DNA of 64,000 nt from the NCBI GenBank assembly GCA_965214605.1, contig OZ243961.1, positions 4,192,001-4,256,000 on the forward strand. Direction: 5' to 3'. Under the pieces are notes generated by a model. It had not been told where the DNA came from and made no database searches. It saw only the letters and a program-made list of their open reading frames with translations. This document shows positions 1-63,970 of this stretch, piece after piece. Positions within the stretch are counted from its first letter, which is position 1; each line of letters opens with the position of its first letter. The position numbers and the translations under genes are program-made. Source of the stretch: an uncultured Candidatus Binatia bacterium. Lineage in GTDB: Bacteria; Desulfobacterota; Binatia; Bin18.

Positions 1-1713
1 CCTTATTTGGCTGCGTCTGAGATGATTCAGAGCGATATGCCTCAAATTCAGCAGCGGGCCTGGCGTGTCGTTCAACACGCGCGGCGTCTCGACCATGCGC
101 TAGAGGCCTTGTACGACTACATTGCCGGCTTTGGTGCGTCGCACACCACTGAGACCTCTAACGACGCTTTGGCCGTTCTGAGCGCCGAGCGGGGTGGGCG
201 GGCGGGCAAGGCGCGGGCCCTAGTGGCCGTGCTACGGGCGGTTGGCATTCCGGCCCGGGTGGTTGGCGGGATTCGGCTCGGCGATGTTAAGCAGGCGCGC
301 ACGACGATGTATTGGGCCGAAGCGTTTGTCGGTCGGACCTGGGTCCCAATGGATCCGGCTGGCGGCTATTTTGGCCGGTTACCGAATACTTATCTGGCGC
401 TCTACCGCAACGATCTGCCGCTGTTGGCCCACACCCGGCACGTATCTGTGGACTACAGCTTTGTCATTGAGCACCTTACCCGCAGGGCCGCCCTGGCCAC
501 GGAGGCCGATCCCCGACCGGAGGGCTTGCAGGATCACCAACAATTTTGGACGGCAACCGCCTATGTTGACCGGCCCCGGGCTTCGGTCGTGTTGATTCAC
601 GAAAGTCCGCTGTCAGAGCACCTCTTACAGTCGCTGTTGACTCGAGCCCGGGCGGCTGGCGTCAACGCCTCGATCTTCAGCACTCCGGACGGCTCACGTG
701 CCTTCCGTCAGGCCTGCCTGCGAACCGTTCTCGACGTTAATAGCGCACTCCTTCGGGATGCCAACCTAGTCGTGCTCAATACCTACGATGCGGCCGGGCT
801 CTACGCCCTGCTCGACCAGGATGGATTGGAGGATAGGCTCCACGACACACGCCTGGTGATAGCCAGTGGAGTGGTCCAACCGGTCGGGAGAATCTTTGCG
901 GCGCTGATAGACCGGGTACTCGAACCGGCCTCGGTGGTGTTACTGCCCTACCAGCCCAACCCCAGCCAAATATGGGAGACCAGTCTGGTCGGCCTGACGC
1001 TCTCACTCCCCCCGTCCCAAGGCGGTGTCGAATTAAGCGGATGGAGGGCCGGTGTGGTCAGCATGTGGCAGCACGCCATCCGGGCCAAGGCCTCACTGCT
1101 GGCGCTGAACGCTATCCTGGTGCTGCCCGTCATCGCTTTTTTCCTCGTCATTCTGCGCAATCTCATCGGTTTAGAGACTTTTGGATTTTTTGCTCCTATG
1201 CTGCTCGCCCTGGCTTTTTTGACAACCGGTCTGGGCTGGGGGCTGCTGATCTTCGGCGCTATTATCGGTGTTGGCGGCGGCCTACGCCTAGTCCTGCAAC
1301 GGCTCCGGCTGCACCTTGTTGCGCGGGTGGCTATCCTGATTGCAGTGGTAGCGGTGAGCATGACCGGCCTCACTCTCGTTGGCGCTCAGCTGGGCATTGG
1401 GGAGCTGCTTCACGTCGGCATTTTCCCCATGGTCATTATTGCCAATATGATAGAGAATTTCAGCAATACCCAGTTAGAGCGCGGAACTCGGGAAGCGCTG
1501 CGGTTGACCGTGAATACCCTGCTGGTGGCCCTGCTGTCTTACGGGTGTATTGAGAACACCGATCTGAGGCCGCTGTTGCTGGCCTTTCCCGAGCTGCTGG
1601 TCGCCATCGTCGGGCTAGAAGTTTTGATCGGCTGTTGGCGCGGTATGCGCCTAGTCGAATATCTGCGTTTTGTCCGCGTACTGCGCCAGGCCGCGGCCCC
1701 AGACCGTATCTAG
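1..1713 (+). CDS. Inactive transglutaminase-like domain fused to 7TM domain (7TM_transglut family), 5'-partial
   Basis: Frame is open from base 1. Transglutaminase core pattern 'GKARALVAVLRAVGIPARVVGG...YWAEAF...WVPMDP' lacks the catalytic Cys/His. C-terminal 'LRNLIGLETFGFFAPMLLALAF...IFPMVIIANMIE...WRGMRLVEYLRF' is typical of 7TM_transglut. Confidence 0.85.
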   Translation, partial: PYLAASEMIQSDMPQIQQRAWRVVQHARRLDHALEALYDYIAGFGASHTTETSNDALAVLSAERGGRAGKARALVAVLRAVGIPARVVGGIRLGDVKQARTTMYWAEAFVGRTWVPMDPAGGYFGRLPNTYLALYRNDLPLLAHTRHVSVDYSFVIEHLTRRAALATEADPRPEGLQDHQQFWTATAYVDRPRASVVLIHESPLSEHLLQSLLTRARAAGVNASIFSTPDGSRAFRQACLRTVLDVNSALLRDANLVVLNTYDAAGLYALLDQDGLEDRLHDTRLVIASGVVQPVGRIFAALIDRVLEPASVVLLPYQPNPSQIWETSLVGLTLSLPPSQGGVELSGWRAGVVSMWQHAIRAKASLLALNAILVLPVIAFFLVILRNLIGLETFGFFAPMLLALAFLTTGLGWGLLIFGAIIGVGGGLRLVLQRLRLHLVARVAILIAVVAVSMTGLTLVGAQLGIGELLHVGIFPMVIIANMIENFSNTQLERGTREALRLTVNTLLVALLSYGCIENTDLRPLLLAFPELLVAIVGLEVLIGCWRGMRLVEYLRFVRVLRQAAAPDRI

Positions 1714-1729
1714 ACCGGGACAGACCCTG

Positions 1730-2698
1730 ATGTTGCAACAACTGCGCACCGTGTCCCGAGAATTTCTCGGCCTGAACCGGCGAGACCGCGACTTGGTCGC
1801 CCGCTATAATCCGCGCCGTCTAGCCCACGATACCATCCATAAGCTGCGTACCAAGAAACTGTTGCAGGCACGCGGCATTCCGGTTGCCGAGACGCTGGCA
1901 GTGTATCGTTTTCAGCACGATATCAAACAGTTTGTCGATCACACGGCTGCCTGGAAGGATTTTGTGATCAAACCCGCGCAGGGCACGGGTGGAGGCGGGG
2001 TCGTTGTCATCGCTGGCCGTCAGGATCAGGCTTTTGTGAGCCTGGGAGGCGGGACGCTCAGGGCACGGATGCTGGAGAACCATCTGTCCGATATCCTAAA
2101 CGGCGTCTACTCACTTAACCATCGTTACGACGAGGCGTTTGTCGAGCGCCGTCTACAGGCGCACCCAGCGCTGGCCCGGCTCAGCTTTCAGGGCTTGCCC
2201 GACATTCGGGTCGTTGTGTTTCAGGGTGTCCCCTTGATGGCCATGCTGCGCCTGGCAACCCGCCGCTCTCAGGGCCGGGCCAATCTGGACAACGGCGGAC
2301 TCGGCGTTGGCATTGATCTGGTCAGCGGGGTGACTAGCGGGGCTATTGCGAGACGACGTTGGGTGATGGAGCACCCCGATACCAGGCTCGGGTTGAGTGG
2401 AATCCGGGTGCCGGAATGGGAGGGACTGGTGCGGACAGCCACGCGCTGTGCGGATGCCATCGGTATCAAATATCTCGGCGTCGATGTGGTGCTTGACGTG
2501 GACCTCGGCGCGTGTGTGCTGGAGTTGAACGCCCGACCCGGCCTCCTTATCCAACTCGCCAACCGGCGCGGACTACGGCCCTTGGTCGAGGCGGTTGAGC
2601 GGAGTGCGTCTCAGAATCTCTCTGTGGCTGAGCGGGTCGCATTCGGCCGGTCCCTGTACGCCGGGGAGGGAGCACGATATCCCATCGCCTCTCTTTAG
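1730..2698 (+). CDS. Alpha-L-glutamate ligase-like ATP-grasp protein (ATPgrasp_ST/RimK-like)
   Basis: Motifs 'LGLNRR', 'FVIKPAQGTGGGG', 'GLPDIRV', 'MAMLRL', 'GRANLDNGG', 'LELNARPGLLIQLAN'. This is the usual partner of the 7TM_transglut gene. ATG at 1730. Confidence 0.88.
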   Translation: MLQQLRTVSREFLGLNRRDRDLVARYNPRRLAHDTIHKLRTKKLLQARGIPVAETLAVYRFQHDIKQFVDHTAAWKDFVIKPAQGTGGGGVVVIAGRQDQAFVSLGGGTLRARMLENHLSDILNGVYSLNHRYDEAFVERRLQAHPALARLSFQGLPDIRVVVFQGVPLMAMLRLATRRSQGRANLDNGGLGVGIDLVSGVTSGAIARRRWVMEHPDTRLGLSGIRVPEWEGLVRTATRCADAIGIKYLGVDVVLDVDLGACVLELNARPGLLIQLANRRGLRPLVEAVERSASQNLSVAERVAFGRSLYAGEGARYPIASL

Positions 2699-56611: not shown

Positions 56612-58237
56612 ATGACAAACGCTGAACAACAGACTCAGACCGCTGGTACGGAGTCAGTCGAGCAATTTGATGCGATCGTCATCGGGGCCGGCGTGATGGG
56701 ATTATATCAACTGTACCGTCTGCTGAAGATGGGACTGTCGGTGCGGCTCTATGAGGATGGCGGGGGGGTGGGCGGCACCTGGTATTGGAACCGCTACCCC
56801 GGCTGCCGCTTCGATTCCGAGAGTGAAACCTACGGCTACTCCTTCTCCGAAGAACTGCTCCAAGAGTGGGATTGGAAAGAGCATTTTTCGGGCCAGCCGG
56901 AGAACGAGCGCTACCTCAACTACGTGGCCGATAAATTCAACCTGCGCTCTCACATTCAGCTCAATTCTCGGGTCGGCAGGGCAGTCTACGACGAGAACGA
57001 ACATTGCTGGGAGGTCCAGATTGAGAATGGTCGGCGAGCGCGGGCACAATTTCTCATTGCAGCGGTCGGTATCCTGTCGGCGACGTATATGCCTCCCTTT
57101 GAAGGAATCGACAGTTTTGAGGGCGAGTCGTTTCATACCTCGCGTTGGCCGAAGGAGAAGGTGGACTTTAGCGGCAAGCGGGTAGGGTGCATTGGTACGG
57201 GAGCTACGGCCGTGCAGCTCATCCCGATTGTAGCCCAGGAAGCGGGTCATCTGACCGTGTTTCAGCGCACGCCAAACTACTGCGCGCCGCTCAGGAATTC
57301 GGAAGTCGGAGGAGAGATCCAGCGCGAATGGAAGACCAGCTACCCGGAAATCCACAAGCGGTGCCGTGAGACTCCGGCCGGCTTTATGCATGATTTCGAT
57401 CCACGGTCCACCCTAGAGGTCCCCAAAGAAAAGCGACTGGCCCTGTACGAGGAGTTGTGGGCGCTGCCGGGCTTCAAGAAATGGCTAGGCAACTTCCACG
57501 ACATTATGACCAACCGGGAGGCCAACGAGGACTTCGCCGAATTTGTCCGTAACAAGATCCGTGGTCGGGTTCACGATCCGGTGGTGGCGGAAATGCTCGT
57601 GCCCAAGGATCATCCGTTCGGGGCCAAGCGTATCCCTCTGGAGACCAACTATTACGAGGCCTACAACCGGGATAATGTGTTGCTGGTCGACGTGCGCAAG
57701 GCCCCGATCGAACGCATCATTCCCAAGGGTGTTAAGACTCAGGATGCCGAGTACGAATTTGACGTCATCATCTATGCGACGGGCTTTGACGCGGTATCCG
57801 GGCCCTTGACCCGGATCGATATTCGTGGCGAAGACGGGCAGACCTTCAAGGATAAATGGGCCAACGGTCCACGCAGCTACCTTGGTCTTCAGACCGCCGG
57901 CTTTCCGAATTTCTTTCTTGCCACAAACTCGGCCTTCTGCAACTATACCGTCTGTGCCGAGATGATCGTGGAGTGGATAGCCGACTGCATCGGCTATCTA
58001 CGCGAGAAGAACCTCTCATGTATTGCGCCCACTCCGCAGGCCGAAGAAGCCTGGGTGGAACACGCCAACGAGTTGGCCGCCCAGACACTCTTGAGCGACG
58101 GAGACTCCTGGTTTATGGGCTCGAATATTCCGGGGAAGAAACGCGCCCTCCTGCTGTATGCCAACAGCGCCCCGGCTTATCGGAAGAAGTGCGCGGAGGT
58201 GGTGGCCAACGGCTACGAGGGGTTTGTGATTCAATAG
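56612..58237 (+). CDS. Type I Baeyer-Villiger monooxygenase
   Basis: 'GAGVMG', 'GGTWYWNRYPG...D', fingerprint 'FEGESFHTSRWP', 'GTGATA', 'ATGF'. Confidence 0.95.
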   Translation: MTNAEQQTQTAGTESVEQFDAIVIGAGVMGLYQLYRLLKMGLSVRLYEDGGGVGGTWYWNRYPGCRFDSESETYGYSFSEELLQEWDWKEHFSGQPENERYLNYVADKFNLRSHIQLNSRVGRAVYDENEHCWEVQIENGRRARAQFLIAAVGILSATYMPPFEGIDSFEGESFHTSRWPKEKVDFSGKRVGCIGTGATAVQLIPIVAQEAGHLTVFQRTPNYCAPLRNSEVGGEIQREWKTSYPEIHKRCRETPAGFMHDFDPRSTLEVPKEKRLALYEELWALPGFKKWLGNFHDIMTNREANEDFAEFVRNKIRGRVHDPVVAEMLVPKDHPFGAKRIPLETNYYEAYNRDNVLLVDVRKAPIERIIPKGVKTQDAEYEFDVIIYATGFDAVSGPLTRIDIRGEDGQTFKDKWANGPRSYLGLQTAGFPNFFLATNSAFCNYTVCAEMIVEWIADCIGYLREKNLSCIAPTPQAEEAWVEHANELAAQTLLSDGDSWFMGSNIPGKKRALLLYANSAPAYRKKCAEVVANGYEGFVIQ

Positions 58238-58265
58238 ACCGCTGTTCGTAGCCTCCTCCCCCTGA

Positions 58266-58287
58266 GCTGAGCGACCCGTCGCTCAGC
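58266..58287. terminator. Hairpin GCTGAGCGA-CCCG-TCGCTCAGC downstream of the BVMO gene
   Basis: 9-10 bp inverted repeat about 30 nt after the stop; no U-tract. Confidence 0.35.
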
Positions 58288-58304
58288 CCGGCCTCCTCCA
58301 CGAA

Positions 58305-58480
58305 ATGGGAGAGGGGCAGCTTCGGCATGCCTTCCTCGCGGCAGCGGCGGCCACTCGTGGGCTCGCTGTCGTGACGCGGAACACGGGCGGGTTCCGCAAC
58401 GAAGAGAGATGTGGCTTCCCCTGTACAGTTGCTGTCGTGACGCGGAACACGGGCGGGTTCCGCAACACCGGCGTCGCGAC
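58305..58480 (+). pseudogene. C-terminal relic of a VapC/PIN toxin gene
   Basis: 'LAAAAATRGLAVVTRNTGGFRNTGV' matches the PIN 'IAATA...L.VVTRN..DF..TGV' tail, with the catalytic Asp lost. Confidence 0.65.
58365..58466. repeat. Exact 36-bp direct repeat flanking a 30-bp unique insert (CRISPR-like geometry)
   Basis: GCTGTCGTGACGCGGAACACGGGCGGGTTCCGCAAC at 58365-58400 and 58431-58466, with an internal hairpin GCGGAAC/GTTCCGC. Spacer GAAGAGAGATGTGGCTTCCCCTGTACAGTT. Confidence 0.9.
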
Positions 58481-58748
58481 GGGCGGTATGAAGGCGCAAG
58501 AGGCCGCCGGCGCCGCGAGTTGCAAAGGAGTCACCCCTAATTCGCCGGCCAGGGCCGCGACGACGGGAAGGAACGCCGCCGTCGCGGCCGTATTGCCGGT
58601 GAGCTCGGTCAAATAAATGACGAGCGCCACAAGACCCAACACCAAAACGACGGCGGGATAGACGCCCAGCGCCCGCAGGCCGCCGCCCAGCCACTGGGCA
58701 AGACCGGTCGAGCCGATGGCCGCGGCCGGACTGAGGCCGCCGGACAAA
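58468..58748 (-). pseudogene. Fragment of a DASS/SLC13 di/tricarboxylate transporter gene
   Basis: 'GGLS.AAAI..TGLA.WLG...IYLTELT.NTA...FLPV...ASCAF..PVATP' covers the SNT and PVATP motifs of SLC13. Confidence 0.8.
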
Positions 58749-59393
58749 CAGGGAGACGCTGGTGACGGTTGACGGAGGAGAGATCGTCTACGAAATCGAT
58801 GACGACCTGTGTTCGGGTGCTGGCATACGATGGTCGAACGACGAGTTGACCTCTGCACTCAAGGGGCGGGTTGCAGCCGTGCTCTTCGATGACGAGGGTA
58901 AGGCGAACATCGAAGAAATCCTCGTCGCGTCGGCGGAGACGGACTTTGCTCGTGACGGACTACGTCGCGTGCTGGAGGATCCCGAGGAGATTGAGGAATG
59001 GAGGGTGGGAGAAGCGATTGCGGAAACCTATCTGACAGAGCATCGGTCATGCAGCTTCCCATGGCCGGACGGACGCGACGAGAGAAAGAGCGGGTCCAGC
59101 CTGCTGGGTGCCGATTTGGTCGGATTCGGGATCGCTGATGAAGGCGATTGCCTTGCATTCGGCGAAGTGAAGACATCTAGTGATCGCAGCCATCCCCCGG
59201 GAGCGATGTACGGTCGCACGGGGCTGAAGCGGCAGCTGGAAGATCTGCGGGACGACGAAGCCGTCCGCGACGATCTCCTGAGGTATCTCGGTCATCGTGC
59301 CGGGTCGGCTCCGTGGCGAGCGCGGTTCGAGTGTGCGGGAAGCAGGTATCTGCGGAACAAATCCGACATTCAACAGCCGCGGCCGCTGACTGG

Positions 59394-59711
59394 CTACGCG
59401 GTGCGCCGCAACAGCTCCTCTAAGGCCCGGCCTTGGCGTTCGAGCGCCTGGCCGATCTGGCGCACGGCCTGCCCCAACGCGGCGCCCTGTTGTTCGAGCG
59501 CGTGGCCCAGCTTGTCAATTTCACGATCGCGCCGCCGCCCGGCCTGCTGCATCTGGCGCAGGCCCCACACAAGACAGGCCAAGCCGCCGGCGCTGACGAG
59601 GAGCTGCACCCCCGCTATCACCACGCCGGCCTGGTTGACCCAGCTCGTGCGATTGGCGGCCTGCAAGGCGGCGACCGCCTCCCGCGCTAATTGGACAAGT
59701 TCCGGCTCCAT
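59394..59711 (-). CDS. Small single-TM plus coiled-coil protein (105 aa)
   Basis: AGGAGGAGG RBS; hydrophobic 'GVVIAGVQLLVSAGGLACLVWGL' followed by heptads 'GHALEQQ/GAALGQA/GQALERQ/GRALEEL'. Confidence 0.75.
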   Translation of the reverse strand: MEPELVQLAREAVAALQAANRTSWVNQAGVVIAGVQLLVSAGGLACLVWGLRQMQQAGRRRDREIDKLGHALEQQGAALGQAVRQIGQALERQGRALEELLRRTA

Positions 59712-59825
59712 CGTCGTCCTCCTCCTGATGCGCGCTGCCAGCGGGGCGCCGTGCGTAGCCGGCTGGCGGCCCGGCCGCGGCAAAAGGTGTGGCAAACCGT
59801 TGGAGGAGCGTGATACGCCGCGCGG

Positions 59826-60044
59826 TCAGGCCGCCGGCTGGCGCCCGGCGATCGACTCGCGCAAGCCCTCCAGCAGCCCTTCGAGGTGGGCCATGCGTTC
59901 ACGCAGCTCGGCTTGCCCCCGCTCAAGAGCGGCTAAGCGCGTCTCGACAGCCCGCAGGCGGGTCGCGACGCCGCGCTGCCCAGCGAGAATCACCCCAGCG
60001 AGGGCGACGCCTACGGCGAAAATCCCCATCAGTTCCGGGCTCAT
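59826..60044 (-). CDS. Small N-terminal TM plus leucine-zipper protein (72 aa)
   Basis: GAAGGAG RBS; 'IFAVGVALAGVILA' then 'LRAVETRLAALE...LRERMAHLEGLLEGL'. Confidence 0.8.
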   Translation of the reverse strand: MSPELMGIFAVGVALAGVILAGQRGVATRLRAVETRLAALERGQAELRERMAHLEGLLEGLRESIAGRQPAA

Positions 60045-60113
60045 CTCTCATTCTCCTTCAGAACTGGCGTATACCAGATCAATATTTTTCTCGCAAGGAA
60101 TTCTGTCAGGCTT

Positions 60114-60125
60114 GAGCAATTGCTC
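60114..60125. promoter_or_regulatory. Perfect 12-bp palindrome GAGCAATTGCTC in the insert's divergent intergenic region (candidate operator)
   Basis: Read from sequence; lies between divergent genes, one of which is an RHH-like regulator. Confidence 0.4.
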
Positions 60126-60256
60126 CAACTTTCTCGAAGGGTCTCTTGTAAGAGAAATGATTGGATTTTATATCATAAATAGGGGGAAAGGGAGAGGAGA
60201 AGGACGAAGATACCTGGAGATCCGGCACAAAAGAAGGCCGGAGGAAGGAGACCCAG

Positions 60257-60553
60257 ATGGCCGATCAGCCACAGGACGGCTCACGGCCGCGGCCGGGCGG
60301 CGGGGACCAGGCGCGGCCCCGCAAGCGGCGGCGCGCCCGCACGACCCCCCTGTATCCCTGGCAAGTCACGCTCTCGCTTCCCGCTGCCGTGGGTGAGCGC
60401 GTCGAGCGCGCGAGTGAGACGGGCGGGGTCGCCGTGCCGGAAGTGGTCCGCCAGGCCGTAATCGCCGGGTTGCCACTGCTGCTAGACCGCTATCGACACC
60501 GCAAAACGAATATACGGGTTCCTTGTCCGGGACGTGCCTCTCCATCAGGATGA
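60257..60553 (+). CDS. Ribbon-helix-helix/CopG-like protein, cut at the insert's right junction (reads on into hamA sequence)
   Basis: AAGGAG RBS; 'QVTLSLPAAVGERVERASETGGVAVPEVVRQAV' fits a beta-alpha-alpha RHH pattern. There is no stop before 60509. Confidence 0.65.
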   Translation: MADQPQDGSRPRPGGGDQARPRKRRRARTTPLYPWQVTLSLPAAVGERVERASETGGVAVPEVVRQAVIAGLPLLLDRYRHRKTNIRVPCPGRASPSG

Positions 60554-60691
60554 CCTCAGGGTGCGGGTCAGCAACCTTGCCGCTGGGTGTCCCGAAGAGA
60601 CCCGTATCGAGCTACTTGCGCTCTCCCTGCCACACAGGAGCCTGGATGGTATTGGGGAGACGACAATATCGATTCGGGCAGGAGAAGGTGG

Positions 60692-63600
60692 ATGAGCCTG
60701 TCCGCAAGAGCATTGCAGGCGCTGAACGAACATTGGGCGGTCGCCGCCATCGGGGCGGACGCGCTGGAGCGCGCGCGGGATCTCGCTCACCAGCGGTTGG
60801 CACAACGGGCGGCGGGCAAGCAGATCAGCTTTTCCTTTGTGGAGAGCGCAGAGGATGAGCCGTTTCTTGAGCGTGTGGGACTGGCATTCGAGCTTGCAGC
60901 GATCGAGGGTCTAGAGGAACTGAGCCGACCGGCCGGAGACAACCAGCGCCTTCGCGATCAGGCGGTGGCGGCATCGTTCCGTGCCTTCGACCTCCGCCGC
61001 CTTCTTCCGGTGCCGGCGGAGACGCTTGCACGTCTATTCTTCGTCCTGCAACTGTCCGCGATCGCCTATTGCGGGGATCGCTGGTCGGATTTGCGGAGAT
61101 GGTATCGGGAGCAGGAAGAGGCAATCAGAGCGCCGAGTGTCGCGGATGCAGACTGGGACCGTAGGCTCCTGTACAGGCTGTTCGATTGCTGGGTCCGGCT
61201 CTTCCGCAAAGACGGGTGGGACGATTTGGATCGTATTCGCGAGATCATCGCCGGTTTGCGCAATGACCAAGTCGTTCACGAGGAACGCTGCCTAAAAAAT
61301 GGTTCTGAGGCGGTAGACCGGGCGATCGCCTTTCGGCTGGCGGCGCTTTACAACTGGGCGAAGGCGACAGAGACGCTCGCCGGATACATACTCCAGGGCG
61401 AACCGGGCGATCCGTTCGGCGCTCTGGACAAGCATTTCGAAGCGGGAGTCCGGGCGGCGACAGCGTCGGGGGACGCGCAGCACGAAGTGATGCTTCGGTG
61501 GCTGCATGCAGTGGCGCGCATCATGGTGACGAATTCGCTCTGGTGGGCGACGCGGGCAGTTAACTCGCGGACCTCGGACTTCGTGCGCTCTCTGACGCAC
61601 CGAGAACACCAAGCGATGTTCGAGCTATTGCCGCCGCAGCGCACTGCGCTGCTCGAACAGGGGCTGCTCGACCAAGCGAAGACTGCAATCGTGGTCGACA
61701 TGCCTACCTCTGGGGGGAAAACCCTGCTCGCGCAATTCCGGACACTCCAAGCGCTGAACCAGTTCCAGTCCGACCGGGGGTGGGTCGTCTATGTCACTCC
61801 GACCCGTGCGTTGTCGGCGCAGATCACGCGCCGCCTGCGCAAGGACTTCGAGCCTGTCGGACTACGCGTTGAGCAATTGACCGCTGCCGTCGAAGTGGAC
61901 GCGTTCGAGGAAGAACTGCTCACCGAAAGGGATGAGCCGTTCGACATCCTGGTCGCAACGCCCGAGAAGCTGTCGCTGGTGGTACGAAACAGGAAGGTGG
62001 ATCGTCCTCTCGCGCTGGTGGTGATGGACGAAGCGCAGAACTTGGAATCTGAGGGGCGAGGCCTGCGGATTGAGTTGTTGTTGGCGACGATCAAGCGTGA
62101 TTGCCCGCAGGCAAACTTTCTCCTGTTGATGCCCTACGTGGAGGAATCGGAATCGGTAGCGCGCTGGCTGGCGCAGGACATCGACGCGGGAAACGCGATT
62201 AGCCTGGGCACGGTGCCGTGGAAGCCCAACGAGCGGATTATTGGCCTCTATCGGGCGGTAGCCGATGACGGTGCACACGGAGGCTGGCACCTCGACTTCG
62301 AGACATTGACCGCGACTGAGAAGGCCATGCCGCTTCACGGGACCCACCGCGTGGGGGGCCTAAGGCCGATTGACGTACCGAAAAGCCAAGTGCTCACGAA
62401 AGGTGTGCAGAAGGGACTCGGGTTGCAGACGGCGGCAATCGGGGCGGTCATGTCGGCACGGGGCACGAGCGTTGCGGTGGCCAACAGCATTCCCACGGTC
62501 TGGAAGATGGCCGGGGAAGCGGCGCGGAGCCTTCCAGAGATGGACGAAGTGCCGTCGGACATCAGGTTGGTTCAGGACTTCCTGCGCACCGAGATCAGCG
62601 CCGACTTCAGGCTGGTCGGTATGCTTGAGAAGGGCGTCGGCGTGCACCATGCGGGGCTGTCCGACGAGGTCCGCGCACTGATGGAGTGGCTTGCGGAGGC
62701 AGGCAGCATTCGGATGCTGTGTGCGACGTCGACGATCGCGCAAGGCCTCAACTTCCCGGTGTCGTCGGTTTTCCTGTCCTCGCGCTATGTGCCACAGGGG
62801 ACGAGGTCGGTGGCGATGGCCCCGCGGGAATTCTGGAACCTCGCCGGGCGCGCGGGCCGCATCGGCCACGACAGCGTCGGTGTCGTCGGTCTGTCGGAAG
62901 GGACTGATCGCGATGCACTGATCAAGTTCGTGAGACGGAACACCGGTGCGCTCGTCTCCCGTCTCGTGGTGCTACTTGACGAGCTTGCGACCCAAGGGTC
63001 GTTGGCGCAGCTGTCGAAGGTGCTTCGGAAAGACCAGTGGGAGGACTTTCGCTGCTACATCGCGCACCTTTGGGCCGAGAAGAAGAACCTCGATGCGGTC
63101 CTCGCGGATTCGGAGCAGCTTCTCAGACAAACCTACGGATACACCTCGATGCGGAACGATCCAGAGCAACGGCAAAAGGCGGATGCGCTCCTAGATGCGA
63201 CGCGGAGGTATGTCCGCAAACTCGCCGATATGCCCGAGGGGATCGCGGAGCTTGCGGATTCTACCGGTTTTTCGCCCGAAGGCGTCCAGGCGGCGATGGG
63301 TGATATTAGGCGCCTGGAGAGCAAGCTAACCGTGTCGGACTGGGCGCCGGAGAGCCTGTTCGGCAGCGGCGGCAGAATGGCGGACCTGTTCGGCGTCATG
63401 CTGCGGGTGCCGCAGCTCAGCCAGGATCTGATGGAGCTGGGGGGTAAGGGGTTCGACCGGAGCCGGATCTCCGAGATCACTAACGATTGGGTGAACGGAA
63501 AGGGACTGGAAGCGATCGCGAGGGAATACTTCACCCGCGAGAAGGATGATGAAGCGGGCACGGGTGCACTGACGGATGCATGCAGGGCGATCTATCGCAC

Positions 63601-63970
63601 CATCGTCAATAGCGGAACATGGGGTGTTTCGGCTCTCAGCCGAGTGTCGGGGATTGACTTCGACACGCTTCCAGAAGCCGGTAGACGGCGGATTAATGCA
63701 CTGCCGGCCATGATCTATCACGGAGTGAGTAGCGAAGATGCGGTGCTTATGCGGATGAACTCGGCACCGCGAAGCGCGGCCGAGGCGCTGGGCAGCCTGT
63801 ACCGGCGGGTCACCGGAGAGGACGAACGCAGGTATTCGGTAGGACAGGCGCGGCGCTTCCTGCAGGGACTTGGCGCCGATGATTGGGACGGGGTGAGGCC
63901 CGAGGGGGCGGCGCTTTCAGGAACGGGATACAAACGGGTCTGGGAGGTCCTTTCGGGCGAGGGAAGTTGA
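60692..63970 (+). CDS. Ski2-like SF2 DEAD/DEAH helicase, Hachiman HamB-like
   Basis: 'PTSGGKT', 'PTRAL', 'TPEK', 'DEAQ', 'GVGVHHAGL', 'ATST.AQG.N.P', 'NLAGRAGR'. It has a long helical N-terminus and is translationally coupled to the hamA-like gene. Confidence 0.88.
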   Translation: MSLSARALQALNEHWAVAAIGADALERARDLAHQRLAQRAAGKQISFSFVESAEDEPFLERVGLAFELAAIEGLEELSRPAGDNQRLRDQAVAASFRAFDLRRLLPVPAETLARLFFVLQLSAIAYCGDRWSDLRRWYREQEEAIRAPSVADADWDRRLLYRLFDCWVRLFRKDGWDDLDRIREIIAGLRNDQVVHEERCLKNGSEAVDRAIAFRLAALYNWAKATETLAGYILQGEPGDPFGALDKHFEAGVRAATASGDAQHEVMLRWLHAVARIMVTNSLWWATRAVNSRTSDFVRSLTHREHQAMFELLPPQRTALLEQGLLDQAKTAIVVDMPTSGGKTLLAQFRTLQALNQFQSDRGWVVYVTPTRALSAQITRRLRKDFEPVGLRVEQLTAAVEVDAFEEELLTERDEPFDILVATPEKLSLVVRNRKVDRPLALVVMDEAQNLESEGRGLRIELLLATIKRDCPQANFLLLMPYVEESESVARWLAQDIDAGNAISLGTVPWKPNERIIGLYRAVADDGAHGGWHLDFETLTATEKAMPLHGTHRVGGLRPIDVPKSQVLTKGVQKGLGLQTAAIGAVMSARGTSVAVANSIPTVWKMAGEAARSLPEMDEVPSDIRLVQDFLRTEISADFRLVGMLEKGVGVHHAGLSDEVRALMEWLAEAGSIRMLCATSTIAQGLNFPVSSVFLSSRYVPQGTRSVAMAPREFWNLAGRAGRIGHDSVGVVGLSEGTDRDALIKFVRRNTGALVSRLVVLLDELATQGSLAQLSKVLRKDQWEDFRCYIAHLWAEKKNLDAVLADSEQLLRQTYGYTSMRNDPEQRQKADALLDATRRYVRKLADMPEGIAELADSTGFSPEGVQAAMGDIRRLESKLTVSDWAPESLFGSGGRMADLFGVMLRVPQLSQDLMELGGKGFDRSRISEITNDWVNGKGLEAIAREYFTREKDDEAGTGALTDACRAIYRTIVNSGTWGVSALSRVSGIDFDTLPEAGRRRINALPAMIYHGVSSEDAVLMRMNSAPRSAAEALGSLYRRVTGEDERRYSVGQARRFLQGLGADDWDGVRPEGAALSGTGYKRVWEVLSGEGS

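Follow-up and report, generated by a model that had tools for sequence, protein, structure and literature searches.

A segment of 1,136 bp has been inserted, precisely and without duplication, in a gene of a candidate antiphage defence pair in the window analysed here, a stretch of 64,000 nucleotides from the genome of an uncultured Candidatus Binatia bacterium (contig OZ243961.1; genome G000, 99.99% complete). Positions given below without any other label are those of the window. The interrupted gene, PDC-M23A, codes for the nuclease-type partner of a HamB-like helicase. The insert carries a gene for a putative ribbon-helix-helix (RHH) protein and genes for two small membrane proteins with coiled coils, p106 and p72. 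A second insert with homologous cargo, splitting a hicB antitoxin gene, has been identified in a congener (G006; same genus, 4 contigs, 97% complete). The interpretation favoured here, to which even chances are given, is that the 1,136 bp are a discrete, non-autonomous cassette of mobile-element origin, inserted conservatively by an enzyme acting in trans.

The interrupted gene spans positions 58762 (start) to 60695 (end). A scripted join of 58762-59373 to 60510-60695 yields an open frame of 265 codons, in agreement with the first-pass annotation of this DNA, which had claimed that excision of 59374-60509 restores the gene. The upstream piece (204 codons) aligns with positions 1-204 of the 265 positions of the PADLOC profile PDLC04529 (PDC-M23A; E 5.7e-74), and the downstream piece (61 codons) with positions 206-255 (E 1.2e-11). 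The two pieces tile six intact homologues (264-265 aa), leaving neither gap nor overlap (...NKSDIQ/IYGFLVRDV vs SDIQLYGFLVRDV; here and below the slash marks the junction). P0127, the closest homologue on record, is intact and 90% identical. As measured by these alignments, the fit is far beyond chance. In its present state the upstream piece reads on into the insert, in an open frame of 544 codons (ORF 58762..60396). The limits of the insert are uncertain by 1 nt, as an A is found at both 59373 and 60509. The junctions TTCAA/CAGCC and AACGA/ATATA have 1 nt in common; exact removal of the 1,136 bp restores the gene with only this A shared, and a target-site duplication is absent. The AA seen earlier at both junctions is there (TTCAA/C and ACGAA/T), and of the span 59374-60510 originally proposed all stands except the last base, which belongs to the host gene. 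Precise insertion of foreign DNA into the PDC-M23A gene is thereby confirmed. As read from the junctions, the target was conserved in the process: no base appears lost or duplicated, and one base is common to the two sides. The codon at the junction specifies Ile, most of the relatives displayed having Leu. The Ile was considered as the scar of a lost base; it occurs naturally in 4 of the 76 homologues matched by the search pattern (120 were examined, 44 were unmatched by the pattern), and the junction codon therefore decides nothing on base loss.

Public contigs of four sequencing runs (X1, X2, X3 and X7) have been compared with positions 58000-62000 of the window; such contigs drop rare forms. 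X1 may be the source sample of the genome, X3 comes from a second study. Misassembly had been named by the first-pass annotation as a way for the finding to fail. X1 contigs bridge both junctions with 0 differences (59007-59419 and 60286-60604), and an X3 contig of 549 nt bridges the right one (60065-60613) with 1 difference. The empty site has been found as well: in a second X3 contig (depth 25.5) position 59374 is joined to 60516, with TGTAT in between, and the sequence reads ATT CAA CTG TAT GGG (IQLYG), that is, in all appearance, the uninterrupted allele of a related strain. An X7 contig of 315 nt (depth 13.9) is identical to 60226-60510 and continues, exactly from the right boundary, into unrelated AT-rich sequence, so that this boundary seems to be present in a second context. 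PDC-M23A pieces occur in X7 at depth 2.9-3.75, and no X7 contig covers 59206-60143, a hole which proves nothing. The 28-mer following 60510 in X7 was not found in G000 at up to 3 mismatches, nor was the 30-mer preceding 59382 in X2 and X3 found in 41 genomes. Contigs of X1 and X2 hold a rearranged module, in which the p72 region is joined to the RHH core. Together, the rearranged module and the X7 boundary contig lend weak support to the notion of a discrete unit.

The features of the region are the following.
58762 to 59373, plus strand: N-terminal 204 codons of PDC-M23A, nuclease-type partner of the HamB-like helicase (PDLC04529, E 5.7e-74).
59374 to 60509, no strand: the insert, foreign in composition, single copy in G000.
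59376 to 59402, no strand: terminal hairpin, its base pairs spanning positions 3-29 when the first 80 bases are folded as DNA.
59394 to 59711, minus strand: p106 gene (105 aa), one membrane-spanning segment, coiled coil, ALERQG-type repeats, product ending in LLRRTA.
59826 to 60044, minus strand: p72 gene (72 aa), N-terminal membrane segment and coiled coil, first gene of a two-gene minus-strand operon.
60045 to 60256, no strand: divergent AT-rich control region (45% GC) with palindromes and a promoter-like site.
60257 to 60509, plus strand: putative RHH gene, 84 codons within the insert, reading on into the host gene, out of frame, to 60553 (98 aa).
60510 to 60695, plus strand: C-terminal 61 codons of PDC-M23A and stop (PDLC04529, E 1.2e-11; homologue alignment).
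60692 to 63970, plus strand: intact PDC-M23B helicase, HamB-like (PDLC04531, E 0; Pfam DEAD, 1.7e-22).

Judged by composition, the insert is foreign DNA: its GC content is 66.7%, with 70.8-73.1% in the three coding parts and 45.3% in the 212-bp middle region, and that of the main contig is 58.4%. The parts recognized at first sight, an RHH gene, a palindromic AT-rich control region and two membrane peptides, are all present, the hydrophobic segment and coiled coil of both peptides being apparent from the translations, and the RHH frame, starting at 60257, does run off the right end with no stop of its own, to reach 60553. The control region contains the palindromes GAGCAATTGCTC (60114-60125) and TCTCTTGTAAGAGA (60142-60155), and a promoter-like site on the minus strand (60109..60081; 1 found vs 0.2 expected in the promoter scan). 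The RHH protein would probably bind the palindromes, and repress its own gene as well as the membrane operon. The three insert products matched no family of transposases, integrases or replication proteins in Pfam, NCBIfam, PADLOC and PHROGs, the last giving only weak matches of unknown function, and none of the three ORFs is a replication gene. Rfam, whose models include the group II introns, gave no match inside 59374-60509 at E <= 1, and two weak matches upstream (58253-58317 and 58549-58637). Inverted repeats pairing both ends are missing among the 25 longest of the 49 inverted pairs in 59200-60700. The family searches, the inverted-pair search and the tiling of the homologues all bear out that transposase, integrase, inverted ends and target duplication are absent, as had been noticed from the start. 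Direct repeats which could represent attachment cores (>=6 bp, or dif-like 28-mers) were not found at the junctions, which share 1 nt. The left end lies 20 nt past the p106 stop, at the foot of the hairpin 59376-59402. This hairpin is probably the p106 terminator, and the unit may have been opened there. Folding of the right 80 nt is weak (-9.8 kcal/mol), and the last 7 bases stay unpaired.

The second insert was not part of earlier observations. In the congener, at positions 1164-1738 (minus strand) of locus L021 (G006:C1:37305-40517), 575 bp split a hicB antitoxin gene; the GC content is 66.8% vs 62.3% in the flanks. The insert consists of an RHH relative directly followed by a 101-codon membrane coiled-coil gene. 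The former is 37% identical to the RHH protein of the window over 67 residues (E 3e-8), and the latter matches a profile of 26 members of the p106 family (hhalign probability 91%, E 1e-6). The split gene reads ...EDYTIIIAPIPTDEGGGYLVAMPD, insert, LPGCIADGETIEAALAEARD... (...GGGYLVAMPD, insert, LPGCIADGET...). An intact HicB can be read in five other genomes, as GGGYLVTMPDLPGCMADGET in G004, G003 and G005, and as close variants in G278 and G090; 25 of the 55 genomes of the bacterial family searched have a HicB match. The C-terminal piece of the split gene matches Pfam HicB_lk_antitox from profile position 18. The junctions ATGCC/AGAT... and ...CAACC/CTGAC fit a conservative exchange at the common CC, the restored target being in frame. 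Between the membrane-gene stop and the insert end are 21-27 nt. The other end cuts the RHH frame on its 5' side, and no canonical start precedes an internal TTG. On these comparisons, the hicB insert is a second, independent and precise insertion of a homologous cassette made of an RHH and a p106-family gene, and the earlier notion of a discrete unit opened at one point is strengthened by an end lying again at 21-27 nt from the membrane-gene stop. The split hicB has also lost its C-terminal RHH domain (it ends in ...VQRAPSPC vs ...VQRIPKTLHMRLAKRAASEGVSL... in relatives), and is, by its sequence, an old pseudogene.

Both inserts thus have one end 20-27 nt past the stop of a p106-type gene, and another which cuts an extremity of the RHH frame. 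Two base-precise, duplication-free insertions favour a defined unit handled by an enzyme over random scraps of DNA. The homologous cargo, the similar distance of the p106-side end and the choice of accessory genes as targets point in the same direction, as does the fact that neither Ku nor a Y1 transposase was found in the two genomes. Ku was searched in G000 and G006 and not detected in either, which argues against classical end joining. The Y1 (HUH) transposase family PF01797 scored 0 in G000 and 0 in G006, the control search being positive in 6 of 14 known genomes. The constant p106-side distance and the RHH-cutting end suggest that the unit may exist transiently as a small circle, or may be cleaved at a fixed end next to the terminal hairpin of the p106-type gene. 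In the former case, one conservative crossover would join the circle to the chromosome. A reciprocal crossover is the simplest mechanism, as it loses no base on either partner. In the latter, transfer would proceed from the fixed hairpin end. Either the host or a larger element could provide the enzyme in trans; the ArdC/integrase elements carrying p106 paralogues, described below, are an example of the latter. Two intact resolvase-type genes reside in G000, far from the insert.

Several data weigh against this scenario. Only two cases are known, and their ends have no convincing sequence in common. The gene order is divergent in the window and co-directional in G006. Chance or illegitimate recombination would leave junction overlaps of just this size (1 and 2 nt), and gene scraps lie in a patchwork upstream of the target. 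No candidate enzyme for the insertion has been identified, no second copy of the insert resides in G000 or in 40 relatives, and the second context of the right boundary hinges on a single 315-nt X7 contig. The RHH frame of G006, having no start, looks truncated as a random fragment would be. Finally, neither of the exact inserts, when closed into a circle, gives a neatly completed RHH gene. In a circle of exactly the 1,136 inserted bases the RHH protein would end in ...RHRKT plus TAAAADWLRGAPQQLL, a tail of 16 residues; the circularised 575 bp of G006 supply no RHH start. The shorter ending NSRGR proposed by the first-pass annotation needs base 60510, which the host gene needs too, a competition for one base that had been conceded at the time. 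It is not rare for one of three frames to meet a stop within six codons, and the circle-completed tail is therefore given no weight. The five RHH relatives extend 1-7 residues beyond the point where the 84-codon frame ends in the alignment, so that at most a few codons are missing; they do so with varied basic tails, and looking among them for an NSRGR-like ending does not discriminate between the two tails. The circle junction, right end to left end, is not listed among the contigs of the four runs, which is uninformative given that contigs drop rare forms.

The insert is single-copy in G000, where it gives one full-length match and short matches to paralogues, and was not found as a unit in the 40 relatives. 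The whole insert had no blastn match in plasmid and phage collections. The RHH protein gave 598 pattern matches in JGI metagenome contigs, and a narrower RHH alignment 219 in contigs of GTDB genomes, 0 being confirmed in both sets. Nothing was found in viral contigs with either the RHH protein or p106. The exact 25-mer of the right end was retrieved 0 times in genome, metagenome and viral contigs.

The main competing explanation is illegitimate capture. According to this view, linear pieces of plasmids or conjugative elements have filled chromosomal breaks, or were copied in through template switching; neither a dedicated element nor a dedicated site would exist, and the neat ends would reflect chance plus selection for intact cargo. 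Overlaps of only 1 nt in the window and 2 nt in G006 are in line with such events, as are the single-copy state of the insert, the cut of the RHH frame at the insert end in both cases, with no start codon in G006, and the occurrence of p106 paralogues in G000 as cargo of plasmid or conjugative elements. Moreover, the 520 bp that precede the target are pieced together from gene scraps, meaning that the locus does collect junk. On the other hand, neither event lost or gained a target base, which is unusual for end joining, and Ku was found in neither genome. Both inserts are whole gene modules extending about 20-27 nt beyond a p106-type stop, and of the RHH matches in the 401 genomes searched in the class, the best two both lie inside such inserts. 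Capture is a genuine possibility, and yet rather unlikely.

Alternatively, the insert may be the deletion remnant of a larger integrative element, a prophage or a conjugative element, which lost its recombinase and kept three genes. In G000 p106 paralogues adjoin tyrosine integrase genes and fragments, and decay is common at the locus. Such a remnant should nonetheless have kept both ends while deleting its interior exactly to the gene borders, twice, in the window and in G006; the junctions lack a repeated attachment core, and the insert is compact, with promoters and genes intact. This origin is considered improbable.

Neither target duplication nor inverted ends are seen with the IS200/IS605 and IS91/Helitron families, and one-ended rolling-circle transposition is known among them. 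A non-autonomous HUH relative, either a palindrome-associated element of IS200/IS605 type or an IS91/Helitron-like element with one hairpin end and one variable end, could therefore be envisaged, all the more so as a hairpin stands at the extreme p106-side end, and a similar distance from the p106 stop in both cases, combined with a variable other end, resembles one-ended transfer. Against the hypothesis stand the failure to find a Y1 transposase in G000 or G006, a right end which has no hairpin, and the lack of a common target tetranucleotide, the termini being unlike 5'-TC...CTRR-3' between A and T or the GTTC/CTTG flanks. The minus-strand sequence of the unit begins with TC and stops just past a hairpin, as in IS91/Helitron, but its last bases are GCTG and it is not placed between A and T, and the G006 insert shares neither the TC start nor the terminal hairpin of the window. 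An IS200/IS605 palindrome-associated element was discarded because the hairpin is at the left end only, and no Y1 gene resides in either genome. The cassette has in common with these families the precise insertion, free of duplication and inverted ends, and one terminal hairpin, and differs from them in lacking conserved target or terminal motifs. An HUH origin is regarded as very improbable. An assembly artefact or a chimeric contig is practically out of the question, as contigs of two studies bridge the junctions (X1 both, X3 the right one), the 98-aa run-on RHH product is on record on 2 contigs, and no supporting point was found.

Other known elements are instructive for comparison. A DDE-type insertion sequence or miniature inverted-repeat element has been discarded, as terminal inverted repeats and target duplication are both absent. 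Integron cassettes are similarly small (0.5-1.5 kb), recombinase-less, circular when free and opened beside the 3' end of a gene, their cargo is often small proteins or toxin-antitoxin-like modules, and they can insert at secondary sites. The minus-strand end ...GGCTG/TTGAAT is tempting, but the other junction and the core of the putative circle, GTCGTTT, misfit the consensus G/TTRRRY, and the integron model was rejected on this ground. In contrast to integron cassettes, there is no attC-like imperfect palindrome here, by a reading of the sequence without an attC model; the putative circle has about 20 nt between the two gene ends, which leaves no room for attC. CIMEs, described in Streptococcus thermophilus, are recombinase-less integrated elements moved in trans by the integrase of a related element. 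Like them, the cassette is integrated, carries only cargo, has no recombination genes, and presumably depends on an enzyme supplied in trans. CIMEs are however bounded by direct repeats of the attachment core, at the attachment site of the helper, whereas the two junctions have 1 nt in common here (2 nt in G006), the coding sequences hit are unrelated, and the unit measures 0.6-1.1 kb. Insertions by IS607-family elements and serine recombinases also lack inverted ends and target duplication, and a common dinucleotide is found at the junctions of both inserts, AA in the window and CC in G006. A serine-recombinase-type exchange fits the CC of G006, where the target stays in frame; a 2-nt exchange at AA leaves the target of the window 1 nt short of the frame seen in the homologues and in the uninterrupted allele. 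In addition, unlike IS607-family elements, the cassette is devoid of a recombinase gene, and the sequence around the putative site shows no dyad symmetry.

A bolder proposal, advanced with considerable doubt, is that cassettes of 0.6-1.1 kb pairing an RHH and a membrane coiled-coil gene are a new class of recombinase-less mobile elements, devoid of inverted ends, target duplication and attachment repeats. Their movement would proceed either through tiny circles or from a hairpin end fixed next to the p106-type gene, and a helper enzyme would insert them conservatively into accessory genes of defence or toxin-antitoxin type, which the cassettes would silence as they land. Were they truly mobile, a very small, enzyme-less type would be added to the known repertoire, invisible to current mobile-element finders since the usual end signals are absent, and a natural route for switching off defence and toxin-antitoxin genes would be at hand. 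Even if the inserts were captured fragments, they would document base-precise insertion of foreign gene modules in genomes in which Ku was not found, and would offer a clean knock-out, made by nature, of a candidate Hachiman-like system, for which the same community has an intact allele to compare. No function is known for the two cargo families, one being the very rare RHH family and the other the large membrane coiled-coil family tied to ArdC/integrase elements.

The assignment of the plus-strand protein to the RHH fold is based on weak but concordant evidence from sequence profiles and a structure model. Pfam RHH_1 is below cut-off (13.3 vs 20.5 bits, E 0.085). A profile search of the PDB gave VapB26 as best match (E 0.0013), with ORF56, MazE6 and CopG also among 19 rows. 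In the structure model (pLDDT 71.5) helices are predicted at residues 43-56 and 60-83, and the top Foldseek rows, 0 of them at E <= 0.001, are almost all RHH proteins (CopA-SO, Arc, PutA, CopG, ParG and others). The product is thus likely akin to RHH regulators and antitoxins such as CopG, Arc, ParG, VapB, MazE6 and CopA-SO, which include its best sequence and fold matches, by the strand-helix-helix layout, and by the position of the gene, either divergent from or upstream of the genes that it would control. It differs from them in an Arg-rich N-terminal tail of 35 residues, in belonging to a very rare family, and in having membrane coiled-coil proteins, not known toxins, as partners. The rarity of the family is apparent from an exhaustive HMMER search, in which 6 proteins, that of the window included, were found at E <= 0.001 in 1.84 billion representatives. 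In a search of 401 genomes of the class, scores below 1e-6 were confined to G000 (6.3e-29) and G006 (7.9e-8), whose copies both reside inside gene-splitting inserts. The other 26 genomes with a match range from 1e-5 to 1e-3; the weak match in the unpublished genome G107 is used for none of the conclusions. Weak RHH-like matches in G018 and G300 correspond to proteins of 141-149 aa encoded beside HNH genes, a different module, and that of G244 to a lone 77-aa gene; none of them was retained.

The p106 family is large and unnamed, with 228 relatives at E <= 0.001 among 336 candidates. p106 matches no Pfam family above cut-off, and nothing named in the ESM Atlas (best score 0.81); a near-identical relative, P0008 (95% identity), is encoded on a public contig of 2,493 nt. 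Nine tblastn loci, that of the window included, were found in G000. Proteins of the p72 family are multi-copy in relatives, and G000 has only the copy of the insert; p72 is unrelated to the p106 profile (hhalign probability 0.2%). Three of the p106 loci of G000 (G000:C1:2080798-2084105, 3874150-3876718 and 3882342-3886159; loci L040 and L041) are in repeated segments, 81-94% identical, made of an ArdC-like gene, a p106 paralogue and a tyrosine-integrase gene or fragment. The L040 segments adjoin ParA-like, Schlafen/AlbA-like and Hin-type resolvase genes; ArdC, integrase and ParA-like names were judged from translations, the resolvase came from a separate search. The segments look like remains of integrated plasmids or conjugative elements. 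The company of ArdC, integrase, ParA and resolvase genes marks the p106 family as cargo of integrative or conjugative elements, and suggests for the membrane proteins a role in the biology of such elements, be it exclusion, maintenance or toxin-like action.

Two further p106 homologues are worth mentioning. At positions 1315-1581 of locus L012 (G004:C4:1634280-1637357), a homologue lying among antitoxin and HNH genes shares with the insert the gene and the 20 nt after its stop (GGCGCGGCTG vs GGCCGCGGCTG), the similarity beginning exactly at the first base of the insert. At positions 1395-1559 (plus strand) of locus L009 (G001:C306), an ORF located 21 nt after the stop of a p106 homologue begins with MTDTRRCKYPLQLPLSL, similar to the way RHH-family proteins start (N-terminus and first strand; E 0.006 by hmmsearch of a small ORF set). 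The ORF could be the remnant of an arrangement in which RHH follows p106, or the likeness mere chance.

The target had been called hamA in the first-pass annotation. Its belonging to a defence-type pair holds, the name does not: neither piece of the gene matches the Pfam HamA family (HamA/DUF1837) at E <= 1. The helicase, whose start overlaps the stop of the A gene (60692 vs 60695), matches PDC-M23B with E 0 over profile positions 3-1060 of 1060, and HamB models come next (best 2.8e-47 in PADLOC). By these profile matches the target is the A gene of the Hachiman-like PADLOC candidate pair PDC-M23, and not HamA proper. The pair is similar to Hachiman in consisting of two genes, a nuclease-type A gene with a D...EVK motif in its sequence and a large DEAD-box helicase matching HamB. 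It differs from Hachiman in that the A gene has no Pfam HamA match and both genes score far better to PDC-M23 models. The name PDC-M23 was not found in the literature searched. The PDC label is presumably the PADLOC mark for an untested candidate system, so that the earlier statement that the insert knocks out a defence system is itself conjectural. As the break in the A gene follows codon 204 of 265, and a long out-of-frame stretch is now attached to the N-terminal part, the pair is probably disabled.

An AbiEi-like antitoxin gene and an AbiEii-like nucleotidyltransferase gene, named from translations only, follow the helicase just past the window (G000:C1:4257270-4258890), and next to the PDC-M23 pair make the locus look like a defence island. 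Inside the helicase gene, a back-joint of 61200 to 60747, with GT in between, occurs in contigs of X1, X2 and X3 (depth 21.8, 9.9 and 314.8), and may be either a duplication variant or the arrangement of a relative. The patchwork in the 520 bp upstream of the target comprises the C-terminal piece of a transporter and a duplicated 36-nt PIN-like remnant. The transporter fragment (58480-58730, minus strand), 37% identical to part of a full gene at G000:C1:2055362-2055709, stands between a monooxygenase gene and the defence pair. The 36-nt sequence GCTGTCGTGACGCGGAACACGGGCGGGTTCCGCAAC is found twice in 58367-58468 as a perfect direct repeat separated by a 30-nt spacer, and has no other occurrence in the genome. 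Translated in the plus frame, it resembles the C-terminal end of a PIN/VapC toxin (VVTRNTGGFRN). A match to the spacer and 5 further nt (35 of 37 positions) lies at G000:C1:1462643-1462679, and an X1 contig shows the one-repeat form (58364 joined to 58431). In run X7, identity to the window ends at 58232, five bases before the end of the monooxygenase gene, and one small contig continues in AT-rich sequence, which suggests that the island to the right differs between strains.

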